From contig JBEWZL010000066.1 of assembly GCA_045837725.1 (NCBI GenBank), positions 492,183 to 512,182 on the forward strand: a stretch of 20,000 nt of DNA, read 5' to 3'. Shown here piece after piece: positions 1 through 20,000 of the stretch. Below the pieces are notes generated by a model. The model was not told where the DNA came from and did not search any database. It was given only the letters and a program-made list of their open reading frames with translations. Position 1 is the first letter of the stretch. Each line of letters begins with the position of its first letter. This stretch comes from Vermamoeba vermiformis (taxonomy: Eukaryota). The translations under genes and the position numbers were made by a program.

Positions 1-3000
1 CGCGAGCTCAATTTGAACCAATCAACGCTATTAAATCTTAAACCGAGGCAATTGAAGCGCCTGCTAAAGATTTGCCCCAAGTTAGAGACGCTGTTCGTTG
101 CTGGTTTGTCCTTGGATGCGAGCAGTGCAGATATTTTAATCAAATACGGCAAAAAACTAAAGTCCCTCGATCTTACGAGCAGTGCCGCTTCGAATGCCCA
201 TTTGGTTCGAGAATTGCCGGATCTGACCTTGCTCATAAGTACGTCGTAGCTTTTACATCCTAACGTTACTGACTCTTACAGACATGAAAAATGAATGGGA
301 AGCGAATAGACTGCCCAGTGAAGATTTTTCCAGCATACGAGAAAACATTACCGTTGTGACTAACCCTAATTTGAGGTAAATATTACTTCATGGTCTTCAC
401 GACGATTTTAACTAATTCAATTCCTACTCGTAGAAACTCGATTTGGAAGGCCAGTACGGCAGAGATTACGGGCATTATTCCGGCCATTAAGAACTTGACC
501 TTTTGCGATGTGTTCGGCTCAACGTTATTCCACAAATTTGTCGACGCAGATACCTCTCTGAACACGTCTGCTCTCTTAGAACATCTCGTTAGAAATCTTG
601 GCTTCAACGTTAATGTATCGTAAGTAGTACCGTCTATCAAAGCACAAAATACTTAGTCAAATGTAGCGTGGTTGATCGTGATCGCGTGAGAATTAACCCG
701 TGGGTCTCGAACTTCCCGTACGACACTGCCCACGACAACATGTACGGCGATGTTAACTGGAATCATGCTACCGCTAAGACTCTCGAAGTGGTAAGTCTAG
801 TGACCTATGTTGGTGGCATTGTGCTTATTTGTATCAGGGCGACACCGCGTTACATAAAGCCGTAAAAATGAATCGCATTTGGCACGCAAAATAGCTTGAT
901 TTCTGTGGGTGCTAATGTCAATGCACGCAACAAGTACGTCCTACATCGGTCCGTTACACTTGTAAATAACGTTAACATTCGATGTTTTAGGGAGGGCCGA
1001 ACACCTCTGTGTTACGCGAACCACGAAGAGGCAGTCCATGAGTTGCTCAAGGCAGGTGCTGATGTGAAAGTTATTGATAGACACGGCTGGTCTGTCGTGA
1101 TGAATTTCATCGCTAACAAGTCCCGACTGCCAAATCGTAAGTGAATCTATTGTCCATCATTTCATTAATTATTTGCACGCAGCCCAAGTGCCTGCTGCCG
1201 CCAGAGCTCGAATTGTCGACGATTTAATTAAGGCTGGTGTTGCTGTTGAACATCGTGCCAAATCGGGACTTTCGGCCCTCGAGGTAAGAACATCAACAAG
1301 GAAATGGAGGCTTTACTTAATGAGTCTTCAGATTGCTTTGCTGAGCGCTGATTGGTCGATGGCCGAGTCGATGTTGAAGCATTCAATACCTCCTAGCAAA
1401 GACGTTCCCAAGAACAGTTTAGGTCCGCTGCACTGTCTCTGTTTAGCAAAGGTTGCAGACGATGGAGTACAAGCCCAACACCAGACTGTGAGTATTAATA
1501 GCTGCCACAAAAGGGCGAGCATTAACAATTGTCCTAGTTGGCGGCGTTGCTCAACTCCGAGTCAGCTGAATTGTTCCGCACCGACGACCAAGGTCAAACT
1601 GCCATGCACGTAGCTTGCATCATCAAGCGATATGACCTCGCTAATAGAATGTTGGTGTAAGTCTTTGGCTTGGAAAACTAACGCGACATTCACTGACCGG
1701 AACAGACACGCGAGTTCAGAAGAGGCAGTCAAGTTGTTCTCAATGCCTGACAAATCGGGCTATACTGCACTGCACTACGCGTTCTTGCCAGAATTGAAAG
1801 AAGAAGCTCCCGATCGCAATCTGCCCTCGTACAGCAGAAGCATGTTGGTGAACGGCAAAGACACGTGGGTGAAGAATTTGAAGCAAGTCAAAGCAAAGCT
1901 GCCTTCGTTAGTTGTGGAGCACGAAGAATTTTTCGTGAATCTGATGCAAGTCACCGGTCTCGATGTGAACGTCAAGTCGCAACACAATGAGACCCCGTTG
2001 TTGCTCTTGTGCAAGTCAATTTGCTCGGACGAAGTCGCTTCTAAATTAGCGCGTCGATTGCTCGAATGCAGCGCCGATCCAAACATTGCTGTAAGCTCTC
2101 ACCACTTGTTTATATTTCGCTAGTTTACTGACGGCAGTATCAAGGATGATCAAGGCACAACGCCGTTACAATTAGCAGCGTACGCCCAAAAAGAAGAATT
2201 AGTCAAGTTGCTGCTCAAGCACAATGCCGATGCCAATTTATCAGATCGCAAAGGAATCAACGCGTTACTTGCCGCTACCATCGGGTGTTTGAAGGTGACA
2301 GAAGAATTTGCCGAGCAGCGCAAGAGAATTGACCAATATAACTCTAACAACGACGAGATCGGCGCTCAAATCGACGATAAGTCGGAGAGGGCTATTCAAA
2401 AGGTCCATGGCATCTTGGATGCGTTGTTGCCTGTGACAAAGGACGTGAACAAGCCCGAGGACGTAAGTTCTACCATCATTCGATGATGAGTTAAATTGAC
2501 ATCTTATTGACGCAGGTTTTGGGCAAAACGGCGTTACACTACTTGTGCGCGTGTACTTCTGTCACCGAAGACATCAAAAAGTTTGTCCAGGAGTACGGAG
2601 CAAGCATGGAGGTCCGAGACATCATCGGCGAAACACCAATCCACGATACGCTGCGAAAGTCTAACTGGCAGAATTTGAAGACCTTGATTGACTTGGGTTG
2701 TGACGTGAACTCTGTAGGCTCACGCGGTTGTTCACGTACGTATATCATACAACATTACAGCTGTGGTCATTCGATTAATGATTGGTTCAACGCAGCTCTC
2801 CACAAAGCACTTTCAACATCCGAAATCTACCGATTGTCACGAGTCGAAGGAGATATATTTGCTGAGGGCTACAAGATTGTCGGGTAAGCACAACACGCCC
2901 TTTGAAAGTCTTGTCTTAACGGTGTTGGCAGTCACTCTTTGGTCTTCTATCCCTCGTGGCTTTGGGTGAGCATTGAAGAGGACGAAACAACAGTTAACAA

Positions 3001-4450
3001 CAACAATCGCGTGTATCGCAACGATTGGGAGTACTACGAGCAAATGTATCGACTGATCTTCGTGTTGTTTACCGTAGCTGACAAGCTGGACTTCAACCTC
3101 GTGAATAGCCGTGGTGAATTGCCACTTCATTTGGTAATATCGGTAAAGCCTGGCTTAAGGTTGTATCTGACATTCTATATTTAGGCTTGGTTCTTTGACG
3201 AGGAAGAACGAGTTTGGGTCGACACCGTGTTCGCTGACTTCCCGTACGTACCCGAAGAACGTGAGCAAACAAGACCTCGCGTGGGTCATTCCTTTGTTGA
3301 TGTTGGAGCACGCTACAAAAGAGCAGCTCAATACGCTCGACAAAACTGGTCAGAGTCCATTCCACGCTTTACTGTGCACCAACTACGTGCGCCCAAGTTA
3401 TTACTCAACGCGATCACCGACGTTCAAACCAGGGTATGTGACATGTATTCTGTAAATGAGCAGTATTAACTCCTGCGTAGTGTGACAAAGATCGTCAAGA
3501 TGTGCTTGGACAAAGGTGCCGATATTGCAGTTACGACTTCAGACGACGAGAACAGTCTCACTATGGCTTGCAGGAACAATGTTTACAGTGATATTCTAGA
3601 GCTTTTGCTTAACCACAGCACCAGCGGTAAGTCACTCTTCCGAAGTCTTTTATCTTCTAATTATGGCTCAGAAGCGTTGGGCAACACGGTTGACAGCAGC
3701 GGTGACACGCTGTTGCATAAAATCCTCAGTGTCAATCGCGATACCCGCGACGAAAATGACGCTGCCGTTACTCTGCTTCTAGAGCGGTTTCCGGAGCTCA
3801 TCAACGAGTACAATAATGAAGGCTTTACACCGCTGATGGTCTTTATCAAGGATTTCGATTACAGCAGTTACAACAGGGTACGAGAGACTATTCGCAATCC
3901 TTAACAGGACCCTAACAATTGGCACAGGGAACTCCACCCAAGTCGAAAGTCAGCGAAACTCTGTTGAAGTTCAAAGGCATCGATGTCAATGCACGCAGCC
4001 AGAGCACGGGTGAAACTGCACTGCATTTATTGTGCTCGTGGTGGTTCCCGTTCAGCATTTTTGGTGCATTCTACAACAACTCTGATTTGTTTTACCACCT
4101 CGGAAATGATAACATGCTCGTTCAACTGATTGAGGGTAAGTCACTTAAAGTTTTGGCAGAGCATCTAACAATTCGACGTAGCCGGTGCCGATCCGTCTAT
4201 TCAGGATAATTCCGGAAGAACTTGCTATGATATTTTACCAAACCTTCGCCAGATTGTAGATAAATATGGACAATTCATGCTTCGGAAGGCAAAATTATCC
4301 GCTCTTCCCAAGCTGGAGCAAGAACTGGGTGAGAATCAACAAACGAGAATCTTGGACATGCTTCAAGTTACATTTGCACATCCCCAACATGGTGCCAATA
4401 ATGATCAGAATGATGACGATAATGATCTTGGATTTGGTTTGTTTGACTGA
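1..4450 (+). CDS. Multi-exon LRR (RNI/F-box-associated type) + ankyrin-repeat protein, 5' end outside the window
   Basis: Successive + ORFs are joined by ~45-55 nt GT..AG introns (e.g. 239-281, 4136-4181). LRR-like CPKLETLFV and KLKSLDLT occur at the start. Many ankyrin motifs follow (GRTPLCYA..LLKAGADV, SGYTALHYA, NETPLLLLC, GKTALHYLC, GETPIHD, GDTLLHKI, GETALHLLC). The last exon 4182-4450 ends ...NDDDNDLGFGLFD-TGA. Confidence 0.9.
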
Positions 4451-4525
4451 AAATGGAGGGTTTGTTGGGTCATTTTATAATAAATATTGGGGCTTGTTTT
4501 ACATAATTAGAAATATATATATTAT

Positions 4526-6100
4526 CTACAGGTCGGCAGATTGACTGGTGCTTGTATGCGTGTTAACCCCAGCGAGCGACTGACGCGTCTGACGATTCTT
4601 GGACGCGTTGTTCGATTTGTCCGTGGAGGAGTTACTGGAACCATTCTTGCGGAAGAAGATCAACGACTGCATCAAGTCGAGAGTGTCCAACACTACGAAG
4701 ATACAGAACCAGAGAGAGCCGCGACCTGAAGGTGAGGACAGGCCAGTGATAACTACAGCCAGGAACAGTGCTGCATTAGCGATCAAACAGATTCCAACAC
4801 CGATAGCCCTGAACGTGATCTGTTATTTGCTAGTCAGTACTTTCATCAATAGAGGCAATACTACAGAAGAACTTACGCGTTCAAGTCGCTTCTTGGTGCT
4901 TTTTTTATGTTTTAAAATGACGATGATCTTTCCTGCGGTGACCAAGTAGAATATGGCGAGACCAAGGGAGACTGCTGCGTTGAAAGACCCGTTGACTTGA
5001 GTCCAAGTGGTTGTCGGCACCGCTACAGAATGTTTAATTCAAACTGCTAAATTGTACTTTTTCTTGCAGCTACGTACTAATTGGATAAACGAAAGCAATG
5101 GCACGGAGTGTTCCGAATGCGATCTCACAACCAAACAACAGGCCGATAATGATGAAGAAAGGCACTTTGAATTTACCCACGAGTTGGTTGACATTGAGTG
5201 ACATGCCGTGGATGACATCGTGCCTAATAAAGGCATCGTTAATATCAAACCAAGAACCGGACGATAGAGTTAACTTACCAATAGAAGGTGATGAGAATAG
5301 TGACCGTTAGTGTGAACGGTTGCGACAAAGTCCATAATGCATGGCCAGCTGAATACGGGTAAATTTGCCGAGAAAACAGTGGATCCACTACAAGAAGATG
5401 GTTAAGACCAAATAGTTATATTCGACAACGTAGCACCGCAATGTTACAAAAATGAAATCTAAAAATACTCACCGGCAACGTAAGCAAAGCGAACTAAAAA
5501 AATAGTTGGTTAATAAATAACTCACCTTGATCGTTTAAAGATCAGACTGACTTATATTTCCCGAAATGATCAACACCAAGCAAATAATAGGCAATTTTCG
5601 GCGTGTTCCGTGCGCCAACAAGTTAAGCATAAGGTTCACTGCGCTAAATACAATCAAGAAAGCGGAGTAGGTGCCCAAAAACGCCGAGAAGAATGGCATA
5701 AAGGTTTCGTTCCATATTAACCAAGGATTATTGCCTAATAAAAATATTGAATTTAGCAAAATTTATACAGTCGAAAATTAATCTAAAAAAGGGTTTTCTG
5801 AATTAAACGTGAATTAAGTGCCCGCTTATTACCTAGTGGGTCGACAGTCGCATTTACTGGAAAAGATCCGTTGGCTAATATTCCGGCAATTCGTGAAAAG
5901 TTTGCGCTCGAGATCTGCCACGCACTTAAATAAATGCCGTCAAGAGATGTTCCGTCGAGGATAAAGTTTGCGCTTCCGGGAGGTCGAGCTATATTAGAAT
6001 AACCAATTAATACTGAACTATGATTAGATTGAGCGCTGTCCCATGTCGTCGAAATTTCACCTAAGGATAAATCGCAACGGCAAAGGCGTATTAATGACAT
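4526..6100 (-). CDS. Multi-exon 7-TM-like membrane protein with an extracellular N-terminal region (start codon uncertain)
   Basis: Minus-strand exons give an N-terminal region with N-x-S/T sites (NHS, NFS, NGS, NAT). About seven hydrophobic segments follow (FFSAFLGTYSAFLIVF; LPIICLVLII; DPLFSRQ..LTVTILITFYW; VPFFIIIGLLF; VSLGLAIFYLV; IANAALFLAVV; LWFCIFVV), then a Ser/Thr-rich tail ending QSADL-TAG. Confidence 0.75.
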
Positions 6101-6729
6101 TAAAGCAACAATAGGATTTAACTCAATGTACGTGACGAGTTATGTTTGAGGCAAAGGAAATCAATTTCAGTTGAAACGTAATAATAATACTAACGGATAT
6201 GAGCGTCGCCGATGATGACACCTAGCGCTCCTCGTGACTGCTGCGATCTGATTTGTGACACGTACATGCCACGATCGTACGCCATTAGCACGAGCATGCC
6301 AGTGACATCCGGTGCTTTTTCGGAGACGATTAAGGCCGTGATAGTCTCGTTGCGGAAGTTGTTCGGGTAAATGATTGGAAAGGCGACGTAAGTGCCTGCA
6401 GCGGGTGACGAGTGAATGACGAGTGTGGCTTGAATACCAATTAAGCAAGCGAGCAGAAGTATAGCGAATGAACCTTAAGGACAATTAGTAACGGATCGAA
6501 ACACCAAAATATCTTGATGTACTTTTCAAATGCAGCATTGTGTCCGTTAGTGGATCCTTCTCGGGAGTACTAATTGAAGATTAATGACGTCTTTCGTTCT
6601 TTTATATTTTACTGGGCTAATTTTGTCGTCCTACTAAAATAGCTATTCCTAATTTAGAATAATACCGTTTTGCGTACGCCGGGTCGGCTAATTATAACCG
6701 CGAGAAATTGTAGTATATAGTGATTAAAT

Positions 6730-8610
6730 TAATGTAAAAATAGAACCGGAAAATAGCCGAAGAGGTATTCGAAACCTGGATCCCATGCAATTAATTTCTA
6801 AATTGGTTATTCAGCCGAACCTTTTGCATTCCATCGATCGTCCATATATTTTAACCGAATATCGTGATGCTCATCTTCATAAGGCAAAGCGTAGGCTGAT
6901 TGAGAATCAAAAGTCGTTGCATCATCTTTAGCAATAATAAATAATCAATTAGTTCAGCGCCGAAAAACTCTATTCATAGTAACAACGTATCTTCTTGACA
7001 ATAGGATAACTTACTTGAAGGATTCCTGAGCGAAGTCCAAGAGGCGCCGATCTGCGGTCCATTCGCAACAAATAGCTTCGCGGGATTAGGATCCCAATCT
7101 AAACGGTAAATGTGAGATGTATGCAATATATTTACCGTATAATAAGCTTAGTTATTCTGAGTAAGCACGTACTAGTCCAGATGCGATGACCACACGGTTC
7201 AGTCGCGCTGCCGAATGTAGGTCACTTTAGATGGCGCGGTACGGCATGTACGACTTGAACTCTTTGAACTCTTTGCTCTCCGTGCTTGACGACCCAGTAG
7301 CAGTGCACGCTGAGTTTCTACGACATTATTGTTAGCGACGGAAATTCCGTATTTTAATACGTCATACCCTAGGCAGTTTGCGGTACGTTGAACTGCGAGA
7401 CAATATGCCAAATTCCTCCCGTCACTCCGAGCACAGCAAACCGCTTGCGAATGGTGGTGGGGATCAACCAGCTGTGAACTATGTTAGCAAAGCTCTCGTA
7501 TCAAAAAAACAAATCTCGTACCTAAAAACACGCCACCCAGCGCAGCACTTCCCGCCCCGCTCGCAATACCCATGCCGAGTGGCACGGCGGTCTTGCAGCG
7601 AAAGATATGATATCTTTTTCGAGATTGACGTGCGAAGCACTTACTTGGCGAGTTCTATTCAATCTTCGACGCCTCGTTCCACAGCCAGTGCGAACTTCAA
7701 TTTCTTTTTGCGCAAAGTCGAACAGCTTTTGTCGCTCTTTTCTAGCCATGAGAACGCGACCGAGATTTAATTCGCAAATTCTTAGGTATTTTAATACGTC
7801 TTCGAATGCATCTTATTTTTAAAATAATTAATATCGCTGATCAATAAGTGTAATTATTTGATGAGCTACCTTCAAGCGCCCTTTTGCTTTTCAATTTCCA
7901 CGCGATTGTCTTTAAATCCCTCTCGCAAATTCGGCACGAATACGACGTCGCCGCCGCACACGATTTGATTTTTAAACATTAAAAGTTTTTCCTTTTTTTT
8001 TTGTTTGGGGGGTGGGGGATGGTATTTTAGGGGCCCCCCGTAAAAAAACCAGGACTGCATAATTATTAGTTAAATAATTAAGGTAGTGGTATAATGGCTT
8101 ACCAGTCAATTAACGCAATGCCTGAATGCTCGATCCGTTCGAACAAAAGACGGCGTAATCGGACTTCGCGACTAAGAGGCACCTGTTTCGTGTTAATAAA
8201 CGTTGAAACTATATCTAAATATAATATTACCTCGGGTAGTCTCGGTGGAGTCAATAATCAACGGCAGTGTCTCGCGCAAATTGTCTTTCGCTGATCCAAG
8301 GATTATTTACGAGCTCTGACAACGCTGTTTTGCGAGGCTCGTCATTAAAGTCGAACGCGTCTAAATAGAGGCAATTAATTTTATTAAGCAGTTATTATGA
8401 GGTGGCTTACCGAACGTCGTGTTGGTGAACCAGCAATTGCCAAGTACTTTTGCCGGCCCTTTTCTCACCGTACAATGAGATGAATAATATTGAATTTTCG
8501 ACGTCGGCGAGTTGCTGGCGGACAGTAATTGGAGTTGCTTGCGAAAGGAGAGTCGGATTTGAATTTTAACGATTTTTCGATTTTACCAATCTCTTCTTGT
8601 TCCATAAATG
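6730..8610 (-). pseudogene. Degenerate or mis-assembled P-loop GTPase gene (dynamin-like/TRAFAC type), boundaries approximate
   Basis: G1 motif ILFISLY-GEKRAGKST at 8469-8443. G3 motif GIALIDCPGF forms across intron 8055-8102 (GTAAGC..CTAAT..TGCAG). Downstream exons join in frame (KRALE|DAFEDVLKY). Frameshifts and stops intervene, especially in the homopolymer-rich stretch 7975-8050. Confidence 0.55.
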
Positions 8611-9281
8611 TCTGATATCTTCGAATTAGTACGAAGGAGTATTTGGAATCGGAACGGCTTGATAATCGTCATTTTCAAATAAAGAAATAAATCGCTCTTT
8701 TAACGCAAAAATAGTCTTCTAAAATATTACTAATAATATGGTTAATAGATAATTTACGATAAAGAATTATTTGAAATTATTTCAGTGCAAAATTCGGACT
8801 GAAAAAATGAATTACTTTGTATTGCGGACACCACCGGGCTGCTCTGCTAATAACGTTATCATTATTATCTGCCTTCATTCAATCTTGCAGTAACTCGGCG
8901 TGGCTGCTTTGGCTCGAGCTGAGCGATACTGAATCCCGCTCCATCCGTTCAATTTCAAATATCACAATACAAGGATCGTCGTTATTTTGTTTTCATCGAC
9001 GCTCGTCTTGGTGTCTAAAACAGGCTTTACTGTTGTCTGAAAAAAAACGTTATCTCTCGCGGCAATTTTTTGATTCAAAATTTCGTGGATTTGGGAACGC
9101 GAGTCTGTAAGTCTGTTCATAGCTTGTTGGGGGTAGGAGCGATGACTATTAAAGATGATTGGCGCCAAGGGACAGAAAAATGCATGAACGTCACGTGTCA
9201 GTCACCAGTCAGAGTTTTGGAACAAGCGAAAGCAATTTTTTTTCAACTTCTGTCGAAGTTACCACAAAATTAACCTCAACA

Positions 9282-9520
9282 ATGTCGTCAATCATTGAAA
9301 AATATTGGAAACGATTTGATTCGCATCCAGCTGAATCGCAGGTAAGGATAATAAATTAAGACGTTTTACGCTACAACGCCAACACATGCCATGGCCTACC
9401 ATACATAATAATAATATGATTAAAATTGTATTACAGTAATTAAATAATGCAGTTGATGATGTAATTTTGACTTTCAGTGGTGTTTCTAGCGCGATCTAGT
9501 TCGTAACATTATTTTCAAAG
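9282..9520 (+). CDS. Putative 5' exons (9282-9341, 9490-9520) of the homeodomain-Ulp1 gene interrupted by the transposon
   Basis: ACAATG start gives MSSIIEKYWKRFDSHPAESQ|GTAAGG. Acceptor TCTAG at 9489 gives RDLVRNIIFK-g|GT. The phase-1 join to 16659 gives ...IIFKEYFEWLITITQIKRH. Confidence 0.5.
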
Positions 9521-9543
9521 GTTACCAAATAGGACACACAAAG

Positions 9544-9580
9544 ATCGAAAGGTATTGTAAAAGTGCATTTGGGTACATTT
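9544..9580 (+). repeat. Left terminal inverted repeat
   Basis: ATCGAAAGGTATTGTAAAAGTGCATTTGGGTACATTT matches the reverse complement of 16585-16621 (ATCGAAAAGTATTGTAAAAACGCATTTGAGTAAATTT) at 32/37 positions. Confidence 0.85.
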
Positions 9581-9583
9581 AGT

Positions 9584-10627
9584 TTATTTACGGTACATAA
9601 ACTTTTGCTTTGCTCTTCTATTATTGTATTGAGGGCGGCCCAGGCTTGGTCTTCCAATAGAGTTGCGTATCACTCTAGGTCGTCCACGCTTTCCTTTGCG
9701 CACTGCATAGTGAAGAGCTTGCTTGTCCTGGTGAGTAATTTCAGTTTGTTCCAGCTCCATTGCCCATCCACTATAAGGACCAACAGATTCTTTGGATACA
9801 TCTTCTGTTGGTACATAGGGAAGCTGTCCCCCTGGTCCTTTCCACCAAATCTTCTTTCCACTGGAGTCAAAGGCACGTTGGGAGTCTTGTTTGCCATACA
9901 CCTTCAGGAAATCATTCTCAAACCAAGTTTTCATTTGAGCATCTTGCATGTTGTAGTGATCTGGTAACTTGGCAATGAATTCCATCACAATTGCATGTAG
10001 AGCATCCAACAGAGTTTGCAAAAACTGAGGTTCGTTCAGGAGGCTAGCAGGAGTGAAAGGTGGAATGTTTGCCTTATGGAGAGTTTCAGCACGCAGATAG
10101 TTTCCAACTCCAGGAAAGAAGTCTTGATCCAGCATCAATACACAGAGAGGAGTAGTAGCCAGGTTCTTGCGGGTAGCTTTCAACTTCTGTTGCAGGTGCT
10201 TTTTGAATGCTGATGGTTCAAGGAAGAAGTCATGTGAAAGAGTGTCAGGCTTGTAATCCACATATATAACAATGTGGTTGCTGGGCTTGTGGAAGAGTCC
10301 AATGACCAAGCCATCTGCACGATGGAAAGCAATAGCCACAAATTTGCTTTCAGCTTCATACTGTTCAGGGGTAAGAAACACAACTTGTCCTTTCATGCTG
10401 AGAGAGATGTAGAGAGTGTGCTTAAGTTGACGTTTTTGCCGCAGCTTGATAATAAGCCACTTTCCAATGGCAGAGGCAGAGAGAGTATACTGTCCATTCA
10501 TGGTAGGTAGGGGCTCTGAAGAAGTAGGTACTTTGTATGGACCAGTGGAGATTGAGTTGAACTTGTGGCCCTTTGCTTTGGCATTGATGGCACTTGCATC
10601 TAGCTTGTTTTCAAGGTATTCTGGCAT
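9584..10627 (-). CDS. NEIL1-like Fpg/Nei DNA glycosylase/AP lyase, intronless, 347 aa, basic AT-hook-like C-tail
   Basis: True start is M-P-E at 10627 (catalytic Pro2/Glu3). It has the conserved GK (SAIGKWL), the H2TH motif LMLDQDFFPGVGNYLRAETLHKANIPPF, and a NEIL1-type zincless-finger region LKVYGK..DSSGKKIWWKG. The tail contains KRGRPR and LGRP. Confidence 0.88.
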   Translation of the reverse strand: MPEYLENKLDASAINAKAKGHKFNSISTGPYKVPTSSEPLPTMNGQYTLSASAIGKWLIIKLRQKRQLKHTLYISLSMKGQVVFLTPEQYEAESKFVAIAFHRADGLVIGLFHKPSNHIVIYVDYKPDTLSHDFFLEPSAFKKHLQQKLKATRKNLATTPLCVLMLDQDFFPGVGNYLRAETLHKANIPPFTPASLLNEPQFLQTLLDALHAIVMEFIAKLPDHYNMQDAQMKTWFENDFLKVYGKQDSQRAFDSSGKKIWWKGPGGQLPYVPTEDVSKESVGPYSGWAMELEQTEITHQDKQALHYAVRKGKRGRPRVIRNSIGRPSLGRPQYNNRRAKQKFMYRK

Positions 10628-10801
10628 TTGTTGTGTTGTCTTTAGAATCAATTTAAAAATGACAGTTTGCTAAGAATTCTCCTTTTATACCCTACTATTT
10701 TAGAAATTCAGCGAAATTTTGACAAAAAATCAACGAAATCTATTACTTCTAGAAGTTTCTCATTTTATTTAACTAGCAAGAATTTCGCAGAACGTCAGGA
10801 A

Positions 10802-12260
10802 CTAATTATTTAATTTCGAGAAGGTTTGCACTACTGCACTGAATGCCTCTTGAGACTCAGCTTGCTGTTGCTGTTGTAACAACAACATGAAATTAGCCTG
10901 TTGTTGTGCCATTGCATGCCGATGGTGCACTTGTTGAAGCTCTAGTAGTTTTTGAAGCTGGAATGGTACGTTGAACAGTTGAGTGACATTGTGCGTGGCA
11001 GGTTCCAAAGCAATCGGATTTGGAGAACAATCTTGATTAGAAAGAGACGGTGCATTTTGAAGAGCACTATCAATCAATGGTTGGGTTGGTTTGAGCAGCG
11101 TCTCTGGCTTGAGCTTTGGAGCCTCCATCACTTTCTTTTGTTGCTTTGGCTTTGGCTTGACACTAACAGAGCTCTCCGAGTCAGAGGATGAGGAGTCAGG
11201 TAATATCTTTGGAGCTGGCTTGCGCTCCTTTCTTCGACGCAGTGCCTGAGGGATTGCTTGCTTTAGCTCTAAGTTCAAGGTTATTAGACAATACTACTGA
11301 TGTTTTTGATTATACCTTTTTTGATTACTGGCACACTCTTCACAGGAGGAGAACGAGAAGAACGAGGTGGTTGGGTACGAGTTGCACTCTTTGGATGCAT
11401 TTCTTTGGGCTTTAATTTGGACTTTGCCGGAGATAACTTTTTTTTCTACAAGGTGAATAAGCTTTTATCTTGATAGATAGCTAGGTTACCTTTGCACTGA
11501 TGTACTCCTTGAATAATATGTCCAGTTGGGGCTGTTGCCCAGAGCTTGTTTTGCCGTGGATTGTCAGGACCTCGCTGAACTTGACCTCGATGACCTTTGC
11601 TAGAGTTGGGTCGGCAAGAAGGACTTTGTTGTATTGTTTGTTTCTCTTAATGAGAAGGACAGTGTGGAGCCCAGCATTTGATTTCAAGGCAACCAAGTCT
11701 CCTGCCTCGATGCAGAAGTTGTCCACTCTTCGAGTCACTTTATAATAACACTTCTTTTCCCAAGGCTCTCCGAAGTAAATGAAGTACTCAGTGATGTCCT
11801 CTGCAGTGAGAGTTAACTATTGTAGAAGTGTACAAACAGTAGGACTTACTCTTGTCTTGTTCGGATGAAACTGGATCGGCGACAGGCTTTTCTTGGCCGT
11901 CCAAGCTAATGGCTTTATCTTCTATAATAATGCATTATAATATTATATTTTAGATAGTAGTGTAATTATTTATTACCTATAGTATTGAGGAGTTGATCTG
12001 AGCTTTTTTCTTTGGATCGAGCTAGATTTGAATCATCGGCAGAATTGTCAGCTATTGAAAAATGAAATTAAGCTTACATTAAGCTAATGTATATTATTTT
12101 ACTATTATATCCTAATTATTAAAGGTAATATCTCATACCTAATGACTTCCGAGATGGATTCAGATCTGAGGAATCAGTTTCAGTCTTTTGCTCGGGAGGG
12201 CTTGCATCTTCAGGGGGTTGTTGGTACTTCAATAATAGAGTTTTCTGGGTTATTAGCCAT
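10802..12260 (-). CDS. Six-exon transposon cargo protein: acidic N-terminus, small beta-barrel (BAH/SH3/Tudor-like?), basic Pro/Ser linker, Gln-rich C-terminal helix; first exon uncertain
   Basis: Exons 12139-12260?, 11977-12051, 11850-11921, 11490-11800, 11316-11445 and 10802-11268 have canonical GT/AG junctions and splice in frame from exon 2 onward. Core: YYKVTRRVDNFCIEAGDLVALKS..TVLLIK..VLLAD..IEVKFSEVLTIHG. Confidence 0.7.
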
Positions 12261-12515
12261 TGTTGTGGTTATCTAATGACTTCCGAGCAACTTCTGATTT
12301 TGTTCTCCCAAAAAAGGAAGTTACCAGGGCTTTGGGCACGAGCCAATTTACCAAGCCATTTTCTTATTACTATCAACAAGATAACCCACAACTACTACAG
12401 CTACTATTAATAATAACATCAATATCATTGGTCATTTTATTCAAAACACTATGGAGATTAATTCAAGGTAAGCCGGGTCAGATTTGATTTTCCTCCCTCT
12501 TCGGAAGTCATTAGA
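12139..12515. repeat. Three copies of CTAATGACTTCCGA (two direct, one inverted)
   Basis: Direct copies at 12139-12153 and 12273-12287 (CTAATGACTTCCGAG); inverted copy at 12501-12515 (TCGGAAGTCATTAGA). Confidence 0.8.
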
Positions 12516-12781
12516 AATTATTCTTTTGAGTTATTAATAATTAAAAGGGCTTTAAAGTACAGCTCTAATAATATCCTAATGAAGGAATTGACAATTTAAT
12601 GAAAAAAGTGATCGGCACAATTTCATATCTGCCTCGCAAGTCATTTCTAATAATTATTCAGTGCTGTTAATATTATATGATGATATTAATATAGTATATA
12701 ATGCACTTATGGGCTTTGTTTTGTTTATGCTTTGTTTATAGCTTATCTTTAATGCCAACTACCCCGTGCCCTCAGTAAAAT

Positions 12782-13242
12782 GTTCGGCAACCAAGTTAAA
12801 TGCACTTGTAACTCCATATACAGCAATCAGATAACTCAGAAAAGATAGATAAATGAATATATTGTCCTATTTGACATTTGTAGCCTTTGCATGGCTTACT
12901 GTGGAATACAAGTTCTGCCGGCAGTCAGATCCAACTTTAACCACTTTCCAACACTACTTTGCCGAACTTCCTAAAGAGTAATTATATGAAGTATTAATTG
13001 TGCATAATATAAACGTGCAATTACTTATCAAATGAAAAATCTTGACTGGTAGTTACAGTTCGGTTGTTGAGTCCTCCCATTGCGCAACTGTTTGCCGAAC
13101 AAAACTAACTTAATATATGCACTTAATACACCACATTATGCCTAATTCAATGATATTCGACTGTCTGAAAAATGACTCAGCGATGATGTCGAAACAAACT
13201 TTGCACCAACTTTTGCACCTCTGGTCTACGACTTTGCCGAAC
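12782..13242. repeat. Dispersed TTTGCCGAAC motif in the divergent intergenic region
   Basis: Exact copies at 12958-12967, 13091-13100 and 13233-13242; inverted GTTCGGCAA at 12782-12790; palindrome CTGCCGGCAG at 12915-12924. Confidence 0.75.
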
Positions 13243-13351
13243 ACTATTTCATTGATAATTGAATATTGTTAATCATTTATAGTTTATATATTATATTGTT
13301 GGCTCGTTGAAAAATCACTGCTCAAGTTAGTGACTGACTTGTCTTTTTTAG

Positions 13352-16300
13352 ATTTCAAGGATTCCTGTGGGGCTCAGCTGGTAGGACTTGGTGAGCTTCC
13401 TCATTAGTAGTACTAACCTAGAAACTAGGAATGAAAGATCTGTGCACTATTGAAACTGTTGCCCTGGTGCTTCGCCTAACACTGCAGTGTATTCCTGATT
13501 TGCAGCTGACTAGTAATTTCTTTCGCTTGCTTGCAACCTGGATTCAATTTGCACCATTATCAAGCTCAGCATTACATCAATTGAAAGTTGATTTAATTGA
13601 AGCTCTTGGACCAGTAGCTGGATGGACTCCGTGCCAATCATACGTTTCTATTGGAGCAATACTGTCTGCTGCTATCAAAACCTTGCCCACAGCTGAAGCA
13701 ACCCTTTTTTGCACTTCTGAAGAGCACAGATCAAATTGCCGCTGCCCCTTAACTATCAAACAATTCAACAACCCAACTGTTTATGTTGCTGAGAAACTTT
13801 CTGACAGTACACTCTCCGTTCAGGCTTCAATTCACCATTTGATAGACTATTGCCAAAAAATGCCTATGCCGTGTGAATTTTGTGGAGAATTTGCAGTGGA
13901 ACATCGTAAGAAACTCCAGTGATGTCAAAGATATATTCTTACAAATGTGTTAGGAACAATGCACCTTCCAACCGTTCTCACAGTGGAGTTGGGCAGATAT
14001 AAGAGACAGTTCACCAATATTAATTTACAAATTGAACCAACTCTCCACTTTGGAGATAGCTCATATAGTCTACTAAGTGCTTTGATGTGTGATGGGGTGC
14101 ACACCACGTGTTACTTTCTTAACAACAACACCACATACTTTTATGATGGGATGCAAAACAATGGTATAGCCTATCGAGTGAATGAAGATATCAATGTTAG
14201 CAAAAACAAACAATACATTGATCATTTGGTGTACATTAAGCAGCAGGTCTGTTGACATTTGTCTGTATTCCAGTATTGACAATCTAAATAGGACCTGGCA
14301 ACTAAGAAAGAAGTTAATGGAATTGCATTGTTTCAATCCATTATATCAAAAGCTGAAGAGGAGCCACTCATCTCTCGCTCATTTTTCAGAGAGCTCACAG
14401 CCGTGAAAGTTCCCTCTCAGAAAGCCCAACATGCAAAGAAAGACAAACTAGTGAGTGAACAGTCAATAACAAAGGGTATGTTTTCGCTTCTAAAAAAACA
14501 CCTCTAACTTGTTTACACCAGTTCAACAAGATAGCTGTTGTAATGCAAGGTGCACTTCATTGTTTACGTATCAACAGATTCTCAAATGTCGCAAAATGGT
14601 AGCTGACATGAATGAAAGTGAAAAAACAACTTGGCTATTGAAATTTATGGGAACCAACATGAATATATCAGATCCTTCAGTTGTGTTTTTGATCAATGGA
14701 ATGTCAGTTTGTCAGTTGGCTTTCTGTCGGATCTATGGTGTAGCCGTTCAGAAAGTGATTCACTGCAAGCAAATGCACCTTAATGGCAGTACTGCAACTC
14801 TACATGGTAATTACTTTCGAGTATATGATACTCCAAAGAGAGACTCTGTTGCAGCATGGATTTCAGCTTATTGTGAAACCTATGGAGACTATGTTCCTAC
14901 AAAGGATGAAATTCACTTACCATCTCATTTAACGTAAGTTTGTGTATAAAATAGAATATGGTTGTAATTGCTAGCTTCAGAAACAAAGAGTGGTACAAAC
15001 TTTTTGCAGAAGAGTGCAAACTGCAACGGCCAACTGAAGATATTCCCAGTTTTGAGACATTCAAGCAAGTGAGGCACAAGCAATTTAAGGTACATTAACT
15101 TGAATCCTATTAATACTAATTATCAATTTAGAATGTTAAAAGACCGAAAGAAACCAGACTGGGAAAGTGCTCAACATGCCTATTAATTAAACAGAAGCGA
15201 CTTCAATCTGGTCTGTGTGAAAAAACTCTTTCAGCTCTTAAGCAACAAATGCAAGATCATATAGCCTATATTACCAGAGATAGACAAGGTTATCGAGTTC
15301 GAACAGATATTGCTATCAAGCAGCCTCACCTCAAGATGAGTGTCATTACGGACAAAAGTGGCTCATTTTGGTTGCCTCATTTTCATCCAATGCCAAAAGA
15401 ATGGACAAATGTAACTTTCCTACCTGTCAGTTTTGTTGGCTTCATCAACCATGGTCTGAACAAGAGAGAATTGGTGTTTTTCAAGGAAACAGATTATGTA
15501 GCAGATTCAGACTTTTACATTTCACTGCTTTTCCATCACCTAAAAGAGTCACTTCTCACTCTAGACCCAGGCAAGAGACCAAGAACTCTTTACTTGCAAG
15601 TAGATAACAGTGCCGCAGAAGGAAAGAACCAGTATCTGCTACAGTTTGCAGCAGCTTTAGTGCACCATAACTGGTTCGATGAAATATTCATTCACTACCT
15701 TCAACCTGGACATACCCATGAAGACATTGATAGATTGTTTCAGTTATTCCACACTTACTTTCGATGGAAAGTTATAGAAACTATGGACCAAGCAGTGGAA
15801 TTTGCCAGAGCCATCTATCCAAAAGACATTCTCATTCGTGAATTACAATGGCCAGTATATTCATGGAAGAAATGGTTTCTTGGCTTTTCACAGTCAATAA
15901 GTGGACATAAGGACAAGTATGCATTTTGGATCAAACCTGGACTTGACAACACTCCTTCTCTTTTGTATAAGAAACAGTCACTGGATAATGAATGGACAGA
16001 AGTTAAAGATGAACTTTTCAGCGCAGCTCCATCTGGTCAGCCTTCTGTGATACAACCCACTTGCCCTTCTGCCGATTTGATTCAAACTATTGTTAGCAAG
16101 GCTCAGAAATTCTTGTCAAAACAAGTAAGCTTTCAACTTTGAAACCGTTTCTTAAGGCTAGTTTAGGCAATTGAATATTTTGAAGCTCTGGCACAATACG
16201 AACCGATTCAAAGTTCTGAAGCAATGTTCTCCATTGGGCAAGTGAAACCAGAAGTGCCTGCCCCAATAATTAGTACTAGCTCAAAACCAGAGGTAGAAGT

Positions 16301-16562
16301 GTTAACCAAAAAGCGCAAACGAGATTTCACTCAGGGTATGCTGTTGGCAACTATTTGAACCAATACTAATTCTTTTCAAGACCAAGAGGAATGGATTGTC
16401 AAAAGAGTAGTTGACCATAGGAAGAATGGAAACAGATTAGAATGGTTGGTTCTGTGGGAAAATGGAGAGCAATCGTGGGAACCACGAAATTGCTTCATTG
16501 ATGCTGACCAAAGCAAAAACCAGGAATGGGCAGAGTATGAACAGAAAAGAAGGAAAAAATAA
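13352..16562 (+). CDS. USP-like cysteine protease - Cys-rich region - Sola1/DUF7869-like DDD transposase - chromodomain fusion (~950 aa; first exon/ATG not located)
   Basis: Exons 13352-13380, 13429-13905, 13954-14246, 14292-14475, 14522-14933, 14975-15089, 15132-16124, 16167-16335 and 16381-16562 splice in frame via 41-48 nt GT-AG introns. Transposase motifs: CCxxxC, VCxxAF..YGV, HGN, GDxxP..LP, KCSTC..H, then acidic residues in VITDKS, QVDNSAAEGKN and GHTHEDIDRLF. Confidence 0.85.
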
Positions 16563-16584
16563 CCAGTTGTCTTATAAAAGTGCG

Positions 16585-16621
16585 AAATTTACTCAAATGC
16601 GTTTTTACAATACTTTTCGAT
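16585..16621 (-). repeat. Right terminal inverted repeat
   Basis: Reverse complement of 9544-9580 at 32/37 positions, followed immediately by AAAG. Confidence 0.85.
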
Positions 16622-16658
16622 AAAGAGTATTACACTAATAATTATTTATTGTTTAAAG

Positions 16659-19600
16659 AGTACTTTGAATGGCTGATAACAATAACACAAATCAAGCGTC
16701 ACGTAAGTTCGAAGACATCCATATCTGGGTGCCAAAACTTTTTTGTTCAAAATTAGGCCTGATAATAGGGCCAATAATAACATACTATTTAATAACATTG
16801 TTATGTGCAAGAGTTTTATTTTTTAAATTTTTTTGGGGCTACATCCAAAATTACATCTGGTCCGATGGGAGCGGGGGTTATAGGGCATATTGTAGCTTAT
16901 CTGTAGACCTTCCTATTGCACGGAATATTGTCATTTTTGGTATGCAAGCAGTTCCTGCCTAGTTCTTGCTGCGTACCAAATTTCGATCCGATCCGTGCAG
17001 GGGTAACTGCAGGCGATGTGCTGAAAACCCCCGCCCAGCAGCCGCACACATCGGAAACCATTCAACTAGTTGTTTGCTAATGTAATCAACTACACTAGGT
17101 CATCCTAAGCTTTATTCCAAGGAGACAAGTAAGTACCTTGTTGCTGCTGTTAATGCACCTGGCTGATTGACTCTTTAGGGCAGCGAGGTCGCGAGGTTCG
17201 TGTAAGTGTTGCCTGATGAGCTTGTAGTTGTATTGTTCATAAACTCCCCGCGATGGGGCATTTACTCCGCGATGGGGTTGCAGCAATTACCTCCGCGATG
17301 GAGTTTTATTCCGAGATGGAATTTTGTAATACCGCGATGGGTTTATTTCCGCGATGGAAGTGCTGTCTTTGTGATGAAGACTGTTTAATTAAAATAAATA
17401 GAAATTAATGTTTATTTTAGAAAAAGCGCCGTGAAAGAGATAATATGTTGGCTCGGGAGAAGGAAATGGAGTGGCTTCGACAACTTGAAGCGCGAGTGGG
17501 GTATGTTCTACTCTTTAGTTCAAACTCAAATCTAATTGCTGTAGTCCTGTTGTATGCAATCTGTTAACTGCTGTGGCTCATCCTCATGCATTAAACAAAA
17601 GAGTGCAGCGAGCTTTTGCTGTGCAAACGGCACAGAATATGGTGTACTTCACACTAGATGTTATAACGAAGACAAAGTGGGATTCTTTTTTCGTTGTTGC
17701 AACTGTTCTACCATCAATTCGCAGTTATGCTATTGATAATGGACTTGGAGACCTTTATCCACTTACTCAACCATTGACGGTCACTGGCAATGTCAAGTTT
17801 AGTCTTGGACCGGCAACTCTAATGAATGCCGTTGGCTGCAGCACTGTTAATTTACCACGACTTACTCCAGAAGATCAAGATCGTTTTGATGCGGTACGTT
17901 TCTATTACTCTTTAATTAATGTCTAATTGTTAAATAGATACACAATGAGATTGAATTGATCAAAAACTCTGTTCAGAATCAAAATTTCAAAATTAATGGA
18001 GCTGTGACAGAAGCAGCGGATGCAACAAAAGCTGCCAAGTCGATGGATAAAAAGATAATGGATGTAAGCTACTATGCTGCTGGTGTTAAACAATTGGTAT
18101 GGTACATTGGCATTTAGGACCACTGCTAACTTTCGCTTAGGTGGACACTGTTATTGAGAAGCAAAAGCACGACAGAAGATTTGCTGAAACAATGGCAGCT
18201 GAGAGCCACAGACATATACCAGTGAAATACATTGAGACTCTGCTCCTCTTGGCTCGAGACCTGCCAAAGCCAAAGCCCACAGCTCCTAAAACTCCTGCAC
18301 CCACTCGTCCTTCTCCCAGACCTGCTGCTCCTGCTCCTAATAATGCTAACAACACTAATAATAACAATAATCAATAAGTTGTATCTGTTTTTCATCGTAT
18401 TGACATTTTTTTACATTAAAGATCTCAATAAACGAAGTTGATATTCAAGACAAAGGTAGATCTGCAGTGCTGCACTTAAAGAATAAATTCTAAATTCTCC
18501 TGTTTAGGAGCTGCTTTGTTAGAAGAAAGTATTGCCCTAAGCAAGCTATTGGATTCTATGCAGCCCTCTATGCATTCAATGGCAATGGACGAAACTACCG
18601 AAGAGCAACAATATTCTGAGCACGTAGCAGAAATTCTGCAATCATTCCTGCATATGAAAGGTAAAGAACTAATGTTACAATCTCTTTCTTACTTTACTAT
18701 GTAGAATACCTTGAAGCGTCTAAAAGCGCAACAGACGACTCAATGGATTTTGAAGTTAGCACCAATGTTGAAACCTTGGCACAAGATGAGTGCAAAGCAT
18801 GCTCTGTTGACAAAGAGGGTCTATCAGAGTTCTTAACAAAAGGCCCGACAGAATCAGGATTTAAAAGTTTCAATATTAACGGAAAAGCTCAAGCTGAAGT
18901 GGATCGTGGTAAGTAATAGTTTTTCAATCACCAAGTGATTAATGTTGTGCAGAGGACTATTTGAGCAAGAAAGAGTGGGTTGCACTGCACAACTTTTATA
19001 AAACTGTTACTCACCCTACAAAATTTGAATGTGAGTTGATGGCTTCTGCACTAGGAAGATATTGGACTGCAGCAAAAGTACAAAATTGGTTTCAACATGA
19101 AAGAAGTCGCAAGCATCCATCCAAATATAATTCCTCAATTATCGAAGAGAAGGATAATCAGATTTGGAATGATTTTTGCTCAAGTTATGCCTTTGAGCCA
19201 GATATGTTGCTACTTCAGCAAATTCAAAGCGCAAAGCAAAGATGCGCTGCTTTCCTTGCTGGTTCTGACACAAAGAAATTCTTGATCAGCATTGACTATG
19301 CTGTTGGAGGCAAATCTGTGGAGTTGATGAATTTATTACAAGCAGTATATGAAGACAAGCATACCCCAGATTACAACTCAAAGCAGGAGGCAGCAGTTAT
19401 TTCACAGCTTTTTGACTGCAACATAACAGACTTGCCAATCCATGTCCCTGTAAAGGAATTACGCAAACGTAAGTCATTTCTTTTTGCTACTTTAGCTAAT
19501 TTAACTCAGAGGTTAAAGTGACGAAAACTTATCCTGTTGTAAACAACTGTGCCTGGACAGCTGGTTCTTTTTTACTTTGTACTTGCAAGCCTCAAAATCC

Positions 19601-20000
19601 AACTCACTGTACCCCAACTCCCTTAGAAGGAACAGATGATGATGAAATATTCCATGTAATTGAAGGATCCAAGTGGCGAAATGATATTGTGCACACCAAG
19701 CACATGAAGTTGTTGCTCTGCATTACAGAACCAGATGCCGGAAGCAAAAAGAATCCAAATCCCACCTACATTGACGACGTCGTAATTGACACAATAATGT
19801 TGAACCTTAATGCTGTTCGAAAACGTCCCATCTATTTTCTATCCGCAAAAACGTTGGCCTTTTATGCACAACACGGGCATACTCAGTACCTAATGGACAA
19901 GTTTGATCAAGCAAGCATGTTGAATTCAAACTCTCTATTTGTGCCAGTAAATTATCATAATAATCACTGGCAATTATTGGAGGCAGATTTTGTAGCTGAA
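16659..20000 (+). CDS. Homeodomain + Ulp1/SENP-like (C48) protease gene, 3' exons; runs off the window; in-frame TAA at 18375-18377
   Basis: Exons 16659-16702, 17421-17500, 17545-17893, 17938-18096, 18141-18374, 18422-18455, 18508-18660, 18705-18908, 18953-19468 and 19510->20000. Homeodomain LSKKEWVALHNFY..HP..LMASALG..KVQNWFQHERSRK at ~18961-19115. Ulp1-like YIDDVVIDTIM..YFLS..LFVPVNYHNNHWQLLEAD at ~19765-20000. Confidence 0.75.
17246..17359. repeat. Array of six CCG(C/A)GATGG units, each a mini inverted repeat
   Basis: Core starts at 17248, 17267, 17293, 17311, 17332 and 17349 (spacing 17-26 nt). Confidence 0.9.

Follow-up and report, generated by a model that had tools for sequence, protein, structure and literature searches.

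Transposons fight silencing with dedicated proteins. Chromovirus integrases and Maverick/Polinton elements have a C-terminal chromodomain that is thought to steer integration to marked chromatin, and MULE and other DNA transposons carry Ulp1 (C48) or OTU proteases. The Sola superfamily, with its groups Sola1-3, is said to have been described by Bao et al. 2009. Here we describe a 20,000-nucleotide stretch of Vermamoeba vermiformis DNA (GenBank assembly GCA_045837725.1, contig JBEWZL010000066.1, positions 492,183 to 512,182 of the forward strand; the whole stretch is hereafter the window), in which positions 9544-16621 hold a copy of a cut-and-paste DNA transposon that is autonomous, present in multiple copies and recently mobile, and that makes a 4-bp target duplication. 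Besides a transposase with a DUF7869 core and an Asp-Asp-Asp (DDD) triad, the element encodes a NEIL1-like Fpg/Nei DNA glycosylase and a second accessory gene, both of which appear to be conserved cargo.

The element shares with chromoviruses and Maverick/Polinton elements the placement of a chromodomain on a DDE/D-type enzyme, here a DUF7869 cut-and-paste transposase. The MULE-type elements with Ulp1 or OTU combine a ubiquitin-like-protein protease with a transposase; the corresponding module of the present element is at best USP/C19-like, a lead only. Sola elements, in the accessible part of their published description, have a DDD transposase, a 4-bp target-site duplication (TSD), terminal inverted repeats (TIRs) of 11-1124 bp and a size of 2-9 kb (PMC10741241). 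Compared by that partial description only, the element has in common with Sola the DDD triad and the 4-bp TSD, and its 37-nt TIRs and 7078 bp lie within the ranges (PMC10741241); beyond these it has a glycosylase gene and a second accessory gene, and its transposase is fused to a chromodomain and to an N-terminal module. We use the Sola label on the strength of these shared features.

The nearest functional precedent comes from fungi, where, according to the accessible portion of PMC12730594, DNA transposons encode TET/JBP dioxygenases that the authors speculate remove silencing marks from the transposon. Like those transposons, the present element is a cut-and-paste element with a DNA-base enzyme; unlike them, it encodes a glycosylase rather than a dioxygenase, and it belongs to another transposase family and another host group (PMC12730594, same portion). 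The glycosylase would act one step later than the dioxygenase in that pathway. The VANC proteins of Arabidopsis VANDAL transposons, which are anti-silencing factors in the part of PMC5735166 available, offer a functional analogy in that silencing of the own family is countered; they have no sequence or domain relation to the present proteins, and the mechanism of the present element is hypothetical. No report of a transposon-borne Fpg/Nei glycosylase was found in open-access full text, with Repbase Reports and supplements outside the scope of that search.

The ends of the element are defined by the following features.

9540-9543, no strand: left copy of the TSD, AAAG, read from the sequence
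9544-9580, plus strand: left TIR, 37 nt, from an inverted-repeat search
16585-16621, minus strand: right TIR, 37 nt, from the same search
16622-16625, no strand: right copy of the TSD, AAAG, read from the sequence

An earlier, sequence-only reading of the window had proposed a complete mobile element with 37-bp TIRs and an AAAG TSD, and real ends, an empty site and other insertion sites were all seen. The two arms, an imperfect pair with 86% complementarity, are the longest inverted pair within 9000-17200 and delimit an element of 7078 bp (about 7.1 kb). A binomial estimate over 8.2 kb gives a chance expectation of about 8e-7 such TIR pairs, and of about 4e-9 when identical 4-mer flanks are included. 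The whole window was compared with DNA contigs labelled with the window's organism (X1), a water metagenome (X4) and an aquifer metagenome (X7). An X1 joint, 9539->16622, omits 7082 bases, which is 7078 plus 4; the empty-site contig retains a single AAAG, and exactly the element and one AAAG are missing. This joint occurs in two contigs with a summed depth of 866, a shorter side of 138 and five letters common to both sides, and the listed contig (281 nt) has 15/143 and 13/138 mismatches to the window flanks, or approximately 10%.

The X1 summed depth, which by the caution of the depth tool is not a copy number, is 5267-13880 in the element bins as compared with approximately 500-700 in most flank bins, and this 10-20x step is located at the two element ends. 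Over the whole 20-kb window, 465 of the 711 X1 contigs are at least 99% alike, and most of them by depth lie inside the element; the copies are therefore near-identical. Other flanks are joined to the same two bases in the metagenomes: one X4 contig has 219 other letters and then matches from 9544 on, another matches to 16621 and continues with 1014 other letters, and an X7 contig passes from unrelated letters into a match that starts at 9544. Homology of the other copies thus stops exactly at 9544 and 16621, the breakpoints on which the sequence-only reading had staked its proposal. A second X7 contig, which matches from 16622 and is preceded by letters resembling the left flank of the window, looks like a second empty site. 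Taken together, the structural claims on the element are ones that we hold with high confidence. A third X7 contig matches through the 37-nt TIR only, departs at 9580 and continues with 255 other letters; such a contig may stem from a shortened, non-autonomous copy or from a different family with this end.

The sequence-only reading had also placed three genes within the element, and this holds, with two on the minus strand and one on the plus strand. The question of whether the glycosylase is conserved cargo or a stray host gene was addressed by a scan of metagenome contigs for glycosylase homologs, which gave four loci, L001-L004. All four contain the glycosylase and are about 68-72% identical to the window at the DNA level, and in L001, L002 and L003 an exon encoding a beta-barrel of the second accessory gene (61-69% protein identity) lies upstream of the glycosylase. 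Two of the loci, L001 and L004, run past the element end; in both, homology stops at the same base and the TIR is conserved, and the next four bases beyond it are TATG in L004 and, in agreement with the same strand of the window, CTTT in L001. For the glycosylase, the ratio of nonsynonymous to synonymous divergence (dN/dS, or omega) between the window and its relatives is 0.07-0.16, and the beta-barrel exon gives 0.11; these are rough values given that dS is at least 1.5 and saturated. Because gene order and TIR are shared and dN/dS is low, the cargo is old, linked and selected. The comparison indicates that both accessory genes have long travelled with such elements, as their saturated synonymous sites suggest, and have been under purifying selection, in keeping with the earlier view of the glycosylase as part of the element. 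Two further pairs of proteins were recorded on single contigs: the glycosylase P0001 (70% identity) and the N-terminal transposase module P0159 (55%) on a contig of 7139 nt, and the glycosylase P0002 and the N-terminal module P0160 on a contig of 7167 nt. These two contigs are presumably whole related elements.

The glycosylase gene and the signals next to it are as follows.

9584-10630, minus strand: NEIL1-like Fpg/Nei DNA glycosylase/AP-lyase, single exon, 348 amino acids, stop TAA at 9584-9586; from Pfam, profile and homologs
10683-10689, minus strand: TATAAAA box, approximately 55 nt upstream of the glycosylase ATG; read from the sequence, with a putative function
10764-10769, minus strand: AATAAA signal just past the stop of the middle gene; read from the sequence, with a putative function

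The Pfam matches of the product are Fapy_DNA_glyco (1.3e-5) and H2TH (1e-7; 32.2 bits, just below the cut-off of 34.7), and a profile of the glycosylase family aligns with human NEIL1 (PDB 5itx, 1tdh) at E 4.9e-33 over positions 1-279. In the NEIL1 alignment MPE stands opposite MPE, and "aiGK" stands opposite "aRGK", which includes the GK lysine. Homologs of 67-70% identity share an MPEY start, MPE opens each of the seven rows whose N-terminus is complete (the window protein and 6/6 relatives), and the H2TH block LDQxFFxGxGNYxRxE is kept in all nine aligned rows. By comparison, then, the protein appears to be a NEIL1-like Fpg/Nei DNA glycosylase/AP lyase with its catalytic residues kept. It has in common with human NEIL1 and other Fpg/Nei enzymes the N-terminal Pro-Glu, the GK lysine and the H2TH element, and it differs from them in being encoded inside a transposon and in having a tail of GRP repeats in place of their C-terminal tail. 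We take these GRP repeats, by the AT-hook consensus, to be AT-hook-like. A conserved Arg is required in the zinc finger or "zincless finger" of NEIL1-like enzymes; the alignment spans this region, and Lys-Lys in the window protein stands opposite Arg in P0006, which at about 25-30% identity is the nearest relative of cellular type that was seen.

The TATAAAA box upstream of the glycosylase and the AATAAA signal after the middle gene argue that the glycosylase is its own transcription unit. The sequence-only reading had all three genes transcribed divergently from a central region; the plus-strand gene does flank this 1.17-kb AT-rich region, but the minus-strand glycosylase, with its own TATA-like box, would not be driven from the center. 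Nei-like glycosylases are also encoded by 336 stretches of viral contigs (IMG/VR), at 23-28% identity to the family of the element, and near the 80 of these viral loci that were examined there were no matches to DUF7869, to the N-terminal module, to the beta-barrel or to the chromodomain.

The plus-strand gene comprises the following.

13431-16562, plus strand: transposase gene, 8 exons, 940 amino acids; splice model, one open frame without internal stop
13431-13905, 13954-14246, 14292-14475, 14522-14933, 14975-15089, 15132-16124, 16167-16335, 16381-16562, plus strand: predicted transposase exons
13431-14246, plus strand: extra N-terminal module, 256 amino acids, USP/UCH-like as a lead only; embedding match
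15132-16124, plus strand: catalytic exon, DUF7869; Pfam E 4.7e-39
15351-15353, 15603-15605 and 15729-15731, plus strand: D-D-D triad; alignment with 149 relatives
16381-16562, plus strand: C-terminal chromodomain exon, stop TAA at 16560-16562; Pfam and PDB matches

A deubiquitinase-like part, a DUF7869 part and a chromodomain had been noticed in this region in the sequence-only reading, and these are better described, under the predicted splice model, as parts of one gene. The model has seven GT..AG introns of 41-48 nt. The junction of exons 5 and 6 is gap-free in 51 of 56 homolog alignments as compared with only 2 of 54 for the junction of exons 4 and 5, where the acceptor may be 14974 or 14980, either of which keeps the frame. 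An alternative genetic code, considered for the in-frame TGA codons of this gene, was ruled out, each TGA being located inside one of the 41-48-nt GT..AG introns; the host uses the standard code.

The assignment of the gene product as a DDD-type transposase, made earlier, is well supported by the alignment: the three Asp residues, 84 and 42 residues apart, are kept in 140/140, 148/148 and 146/147 of the aligned relatives, and the same alignment, with 149 relatives, also has an invariant CxxC pair, His and GHTH. The core is DUF7869, RNase-H-like, with an invariant Asp-Asp-Asp triad. The catalytic exon finds 2406 proteins at E<=0.001 in a library clustered at 50%. The closest foreign full-length relative, P0008, is 40% identical, and a 178-amino-acid fragment, P0009, is 74% identical; the named relatives come from an amoebozoan transcriptome and a nemertean, together with XP_011683946.1 ("PREDICTED: uncharacterized protein").

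The chromodomain proposed earlier, which lies at the C-terminus, is borne out by the PDB search, in which 27 of the 30 matches at E<=1 are chromodomains (cpSRP43, HP1, CDY, CBX; best 4e-4); the Pfam Chromo match has E 0.0016 and 18.8 bits, under the cut-off of 25.1. Trp residues are seen, by eye only, at the places expected of a chromodomain, and the methyl-lysine aromatic cage is putative. P0039 is the only transposase relative that was seen to align through the chromodomain. The Pfam domains Chromo, UCH and Fpg were found in none of 62 long DUF7869 relatives. One of these 62 has a Ulp1 (Peptidase_C48) domain and one, P0045, has a protein kinase domain; odd fusions therefore recur in DUF7869 transposases.

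The nature of the N-terminal module is less clear-cut. In the embedding comparison with the Atlas, three of the four rows shown belong to UCH clusters, with scores of 0.87-0.89 that fall short of the 0.9 line, and rank 2 (0.88) is a hypothetical protein without a common family. There was no Pfam UCH match, even at E<=10, and USP was absent from the PDB matches in a profile search of the module and in a phmmer search of exon 2. The AlphaFold2 (AF2) model has a predicted local distance difference test score (pLDDT) of 38 and was unusable for a fold search. The module aligns with none of the 150 closest relatives of the transposase; besides the window's own protein it has three homologs, at 52-56% identity. 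The order of its motifs (Cys5, CxC, CxxC, LPxxL, His box, YDG) we read as USP-like by comparison with known USP motifs. The module is at best USP/C19-like, and we treat this as a lead.

Between the glycosylase and the transposase lie the second accessory gene, here called the middle gene, and the central region.

10802-12051, minus strand: middle accessory gene, 5 exons, 351-amino-acid open frame; predicted splice model with GT..AG introns
12051-11977, 11921-11850, 11800-11490, 11445-11316, 11268-10802, minus strand: predicted middle-gene exons
11490-11800, minus strand: conserved globular-domain exon of the middle gene, small beta-barrel; homologs of 61-70% identity
12139-12260, minus strand: possible first exon for the middle gene, with its ATG (12260) one base out of frame in the window copy
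12261-13430, no strand: central AT-rich non-coding region between divergent genes, GC 0.32-0.37, 1.17 kb
12139-12153 (minus), 12273-12287 (minus) and 12500-12514 (plus, 1 mismatch): three copies of the 15-nt motif CTCGGAAGTCATTAG; sequence search

The middle-gene product has a basic, Q-rich tail. Its beta-barrel exon had no Pfam match, and its rows in a phmmer search of PDB are at chance level only. The AF2 model of the exon (pLDDT 53) has five strands and a helix, and Foldseek found no match to it at E<=0.001. With the same model, the first four ranks of the VIA wide comparison have Z 6.8-7.0; they are BAH domains at ranks 1, 3 and 4 (AIPP3, EBS, Rsc2) and MET1, over its residues 714-887, at rank 2. 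These Z values lie under the caution line of 8, so that the likeness may mean a common arrangement only. Further BAH entries occur among the 50 rows shown, and KOW, MazF and Tudor barrels score alike. The possible BAH-like reader of the sequence-only reading has weak structural support, and with low confidence we describe the modelled domain as possibly BAH/Tudor-like. The Atlas comparison gave mixed hypothetical and NlpC/P60-like clusters (0.86-0.90), and the reading as an NlpC/P60-like peptidase was ruled out, as there is no conserved Cys.

A form one base shorter at 12212, within the possible first exon, is present in two X1 contigs (depth 3157 of 15118) and in an X4 contig. Two other length variants were seen in the middle gene: an additional G after 10811, which makes up approximately one fifth of the X1 depth, occurs also in X4 and X7 contigs and alters the last residues only, and an additional A after 11449, found in X1 and X7. 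The central region, 12261-13430, is the highest X1 depth bin and contains several break points of X4 contigs. The motif CTCGGAAGTCATTAG has three matches in 12139-12514 as compared with 0.01 expected, and 0 of 200 shuffles reach three; two copies are present in L001 and one in L003. The motif may be a binding or promoter element.

The element also carries a marked footprint in its dinucleotide composition. The observed/expected ratio of CpG falls from 1.26 in the left flank to 0.41 in the element and is 0.61 in the right flank; that of GpC is approximately 1.2-1.4 throughout the window. In steps of 1 kb, the CpG ratio is 0.93-1.56 in the left flank (1-9000), 0.27-0.50 in the element and 0.43-0.45 in 18001-20000. 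TpG and CpA are raised in the element, and the relatives L001-L004 have CpG ratios of 0.22-0.36. CpG depletion is a classical mark of long-term CpG methylation and deamination. The contrast between the left and right flanks hints at mosaic CpG methylation in the host; the CpG-poor 18001-20000 is part of the single-copy right end and holds a homeodomain open reading frame (ORF).

One possible account of why a cut-and-paste element should keep such an enzyme is the following. The chromodomain, and perhaps also the beta-barrel protein, would hold the machinery on chromatin that carries methyl-lysine, and cutting and pasting at the TIRs would be the work of the DDD core. The glycosylase would act on bases in the DNA of the element itself, which would historically have been CpG-methylated; by removing methylation-derived, oxidised or deaminated products of cytosine, it would work against silencing or mutational decay. 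As a whole, this account of a mobile DUF7869 element with selected cargo and a glycosylase acting on its own DNA is the one that we favor, and we regard it as probable by a small measure. The counter-silencing role of the glycosylase in particular, which is inferred from the identities of the domains, is possible, with somewhat less than an even chance, and we favor it over a plain repair role. A stronger version would have a self-contained counter-silencing system, in which an AT-hook-tailed glycosylase and chromatin readers, namely the transposase chromodomain and the BAH/Tudor-like protein, locate methylated, heterochromatic copies of the element and base excision there removes cytosine methylation or its oxidised or deaminated products, and in which the USP-like module may reverse histone ubiquitin marks; we consider this rather unlikely in its full form. 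The sequence-only reading had already suggested a targeting or anti-silencing module, and CpG depletion is the only new circumstantial support for it. Its unusual cargo makes the element a candidate jumping gene that would edit or repair bases in DNA for its own benefit.

Several points weigh against this account. NEIL1-type enzymes are known mainly for oxidised bases and not for 5-methylcytosine, and preferential action of the glycosylase on the element is a proposal. The CpG depletion could come from foreign-genome ancestry or from selection rather than from methylation, with 20 kb of host sequence as the base of comparison. The splice models and the expression of the genes are predicted from the DNA sequence, and under its splice model the putative first exon of the middle gene is frameshifted in the window copy. 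The empty-site contig is a diverged allele or paralogue rather than the same haplotype, and it never received the insertion. The agreement of the 7139- and 7167-nt contigs with the size of the element comes from recorded sizes, and the omega values carry the uncertainty of saturated synonymous sites. An RNA run, X17, gave approximately zero depth on the element and has no bearing on expression or splicing, as only 3 of its 411 aligned reads are at least 99% alike and 380 align in part only. Most of them are poly-T or poly-G artefacts attracted by low-complexity stretches at 7986-8018 and 16814-16834, and the false joints 8006->16814 are likewise artefacts and not splicing.

One could envision alternatives at several levels. 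The first is that the glycosylase serves repair or maintenance only and has no epigenetic role; it would act on oxidised or deaminated bases, on damage caused by a mutagenic host defence, or on abasic or damaged ends at excision and integration. The closest solved relative, NEIL1, is a base-excision enzyme, the 336 viral-contig stretches indicate that other selfish or autonomous genomes carry the enzyme class, and the kept catalytic residues and the strong selection are as expected of a repair enzyme. However, a diffusible enzyme would bring no obvious private benefit to one element among the host DNA, and targeting to chromatin is suggested by the AT-hook-like tail, the chromodomain and the reader-like protein. 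A history of methylation would account for the CpG depletion, though repair of deamination products would do so equally well. We judge plain repair to be unlikely, while giving it appreciable weight. That the accessory genes are passengers, captured host fragments without a function for the transposon, is very improbable. Host-gene capture is known for DNA transposons of several superfamilies, and no expression was seen here (the X17 run being uninformative), but relatives at 68-72% DNA identity have an identical gene order by the same TIR, dN/dS is 0.07-0.16, and the glycosylase has an intact frame from its catalytic MPE and its own TATA-like box.

A more radical alternative, that the TIRs and AAAG arose by chance and that the genes are ordinary neighbouring host genes, is refuted by the expectation of approximately 4e-9, the precise empty site, the 10-20x depth step and the other flanks at the same two bases; what probability it retains is negligible. 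The classification is a separate question. The element could lie outside Sola1, Sola2 and Sola3, in another or an undescribed DDD/E superfamily with 4-bp duplications. The Sola likeness is set by a published description and not by the sequence of any named Sola transposase, Pfam gives the core as DUF7869 only, a name for which a full-text literature search gave no paper, and there are other superfamilies with 4-bp duplications. On the other side, the DDD triad, the 4-bp TSD, the TIR length and the size are all inside the Sola description, as far as the accessible part of it goes (PMC10741241). Placement outside Sola seems improbable to us, without being far-fetched.

If the favored account of a mobile element with selected cargo is correct, then selection would be maintaining a catalytically intact base-excision glycosylase in a cut-and-paste element, and the anti-silencing repertoire would gain a new enzyme class; should the counter-silencing system be true, the element would be the first transposon known with its own base-excision "demethylase". 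The element lets one ask by direct experiment whether base excision can serve mobile DNA in erasing methylation or in withstanding mutational decay. With defined 37-nt ends, this compact and apparently active family is tractable for transposition assays that include or omit each accessory gene.

The flanks of the element contain host sequence with features of their own. To the left, window positions 1104-3904 (plus strand) hold ankyrin-repeat ORFs arranged head to tail in one frame, with single in-frame stops between them (TAG, TAG, TGA, TAA); this array could be a decayed gene or a gene with short in-frame introns. Positions 4670-6670 have an X1 summed depth of approximately 930-1100, as compared with approximately 500-650 on either side, and may be a low-copy duplicated stretch. 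To the right of the element, the homeodomain ORF at 18943-19518 (plus strand; E 1.6e-5) is a gene of the host.

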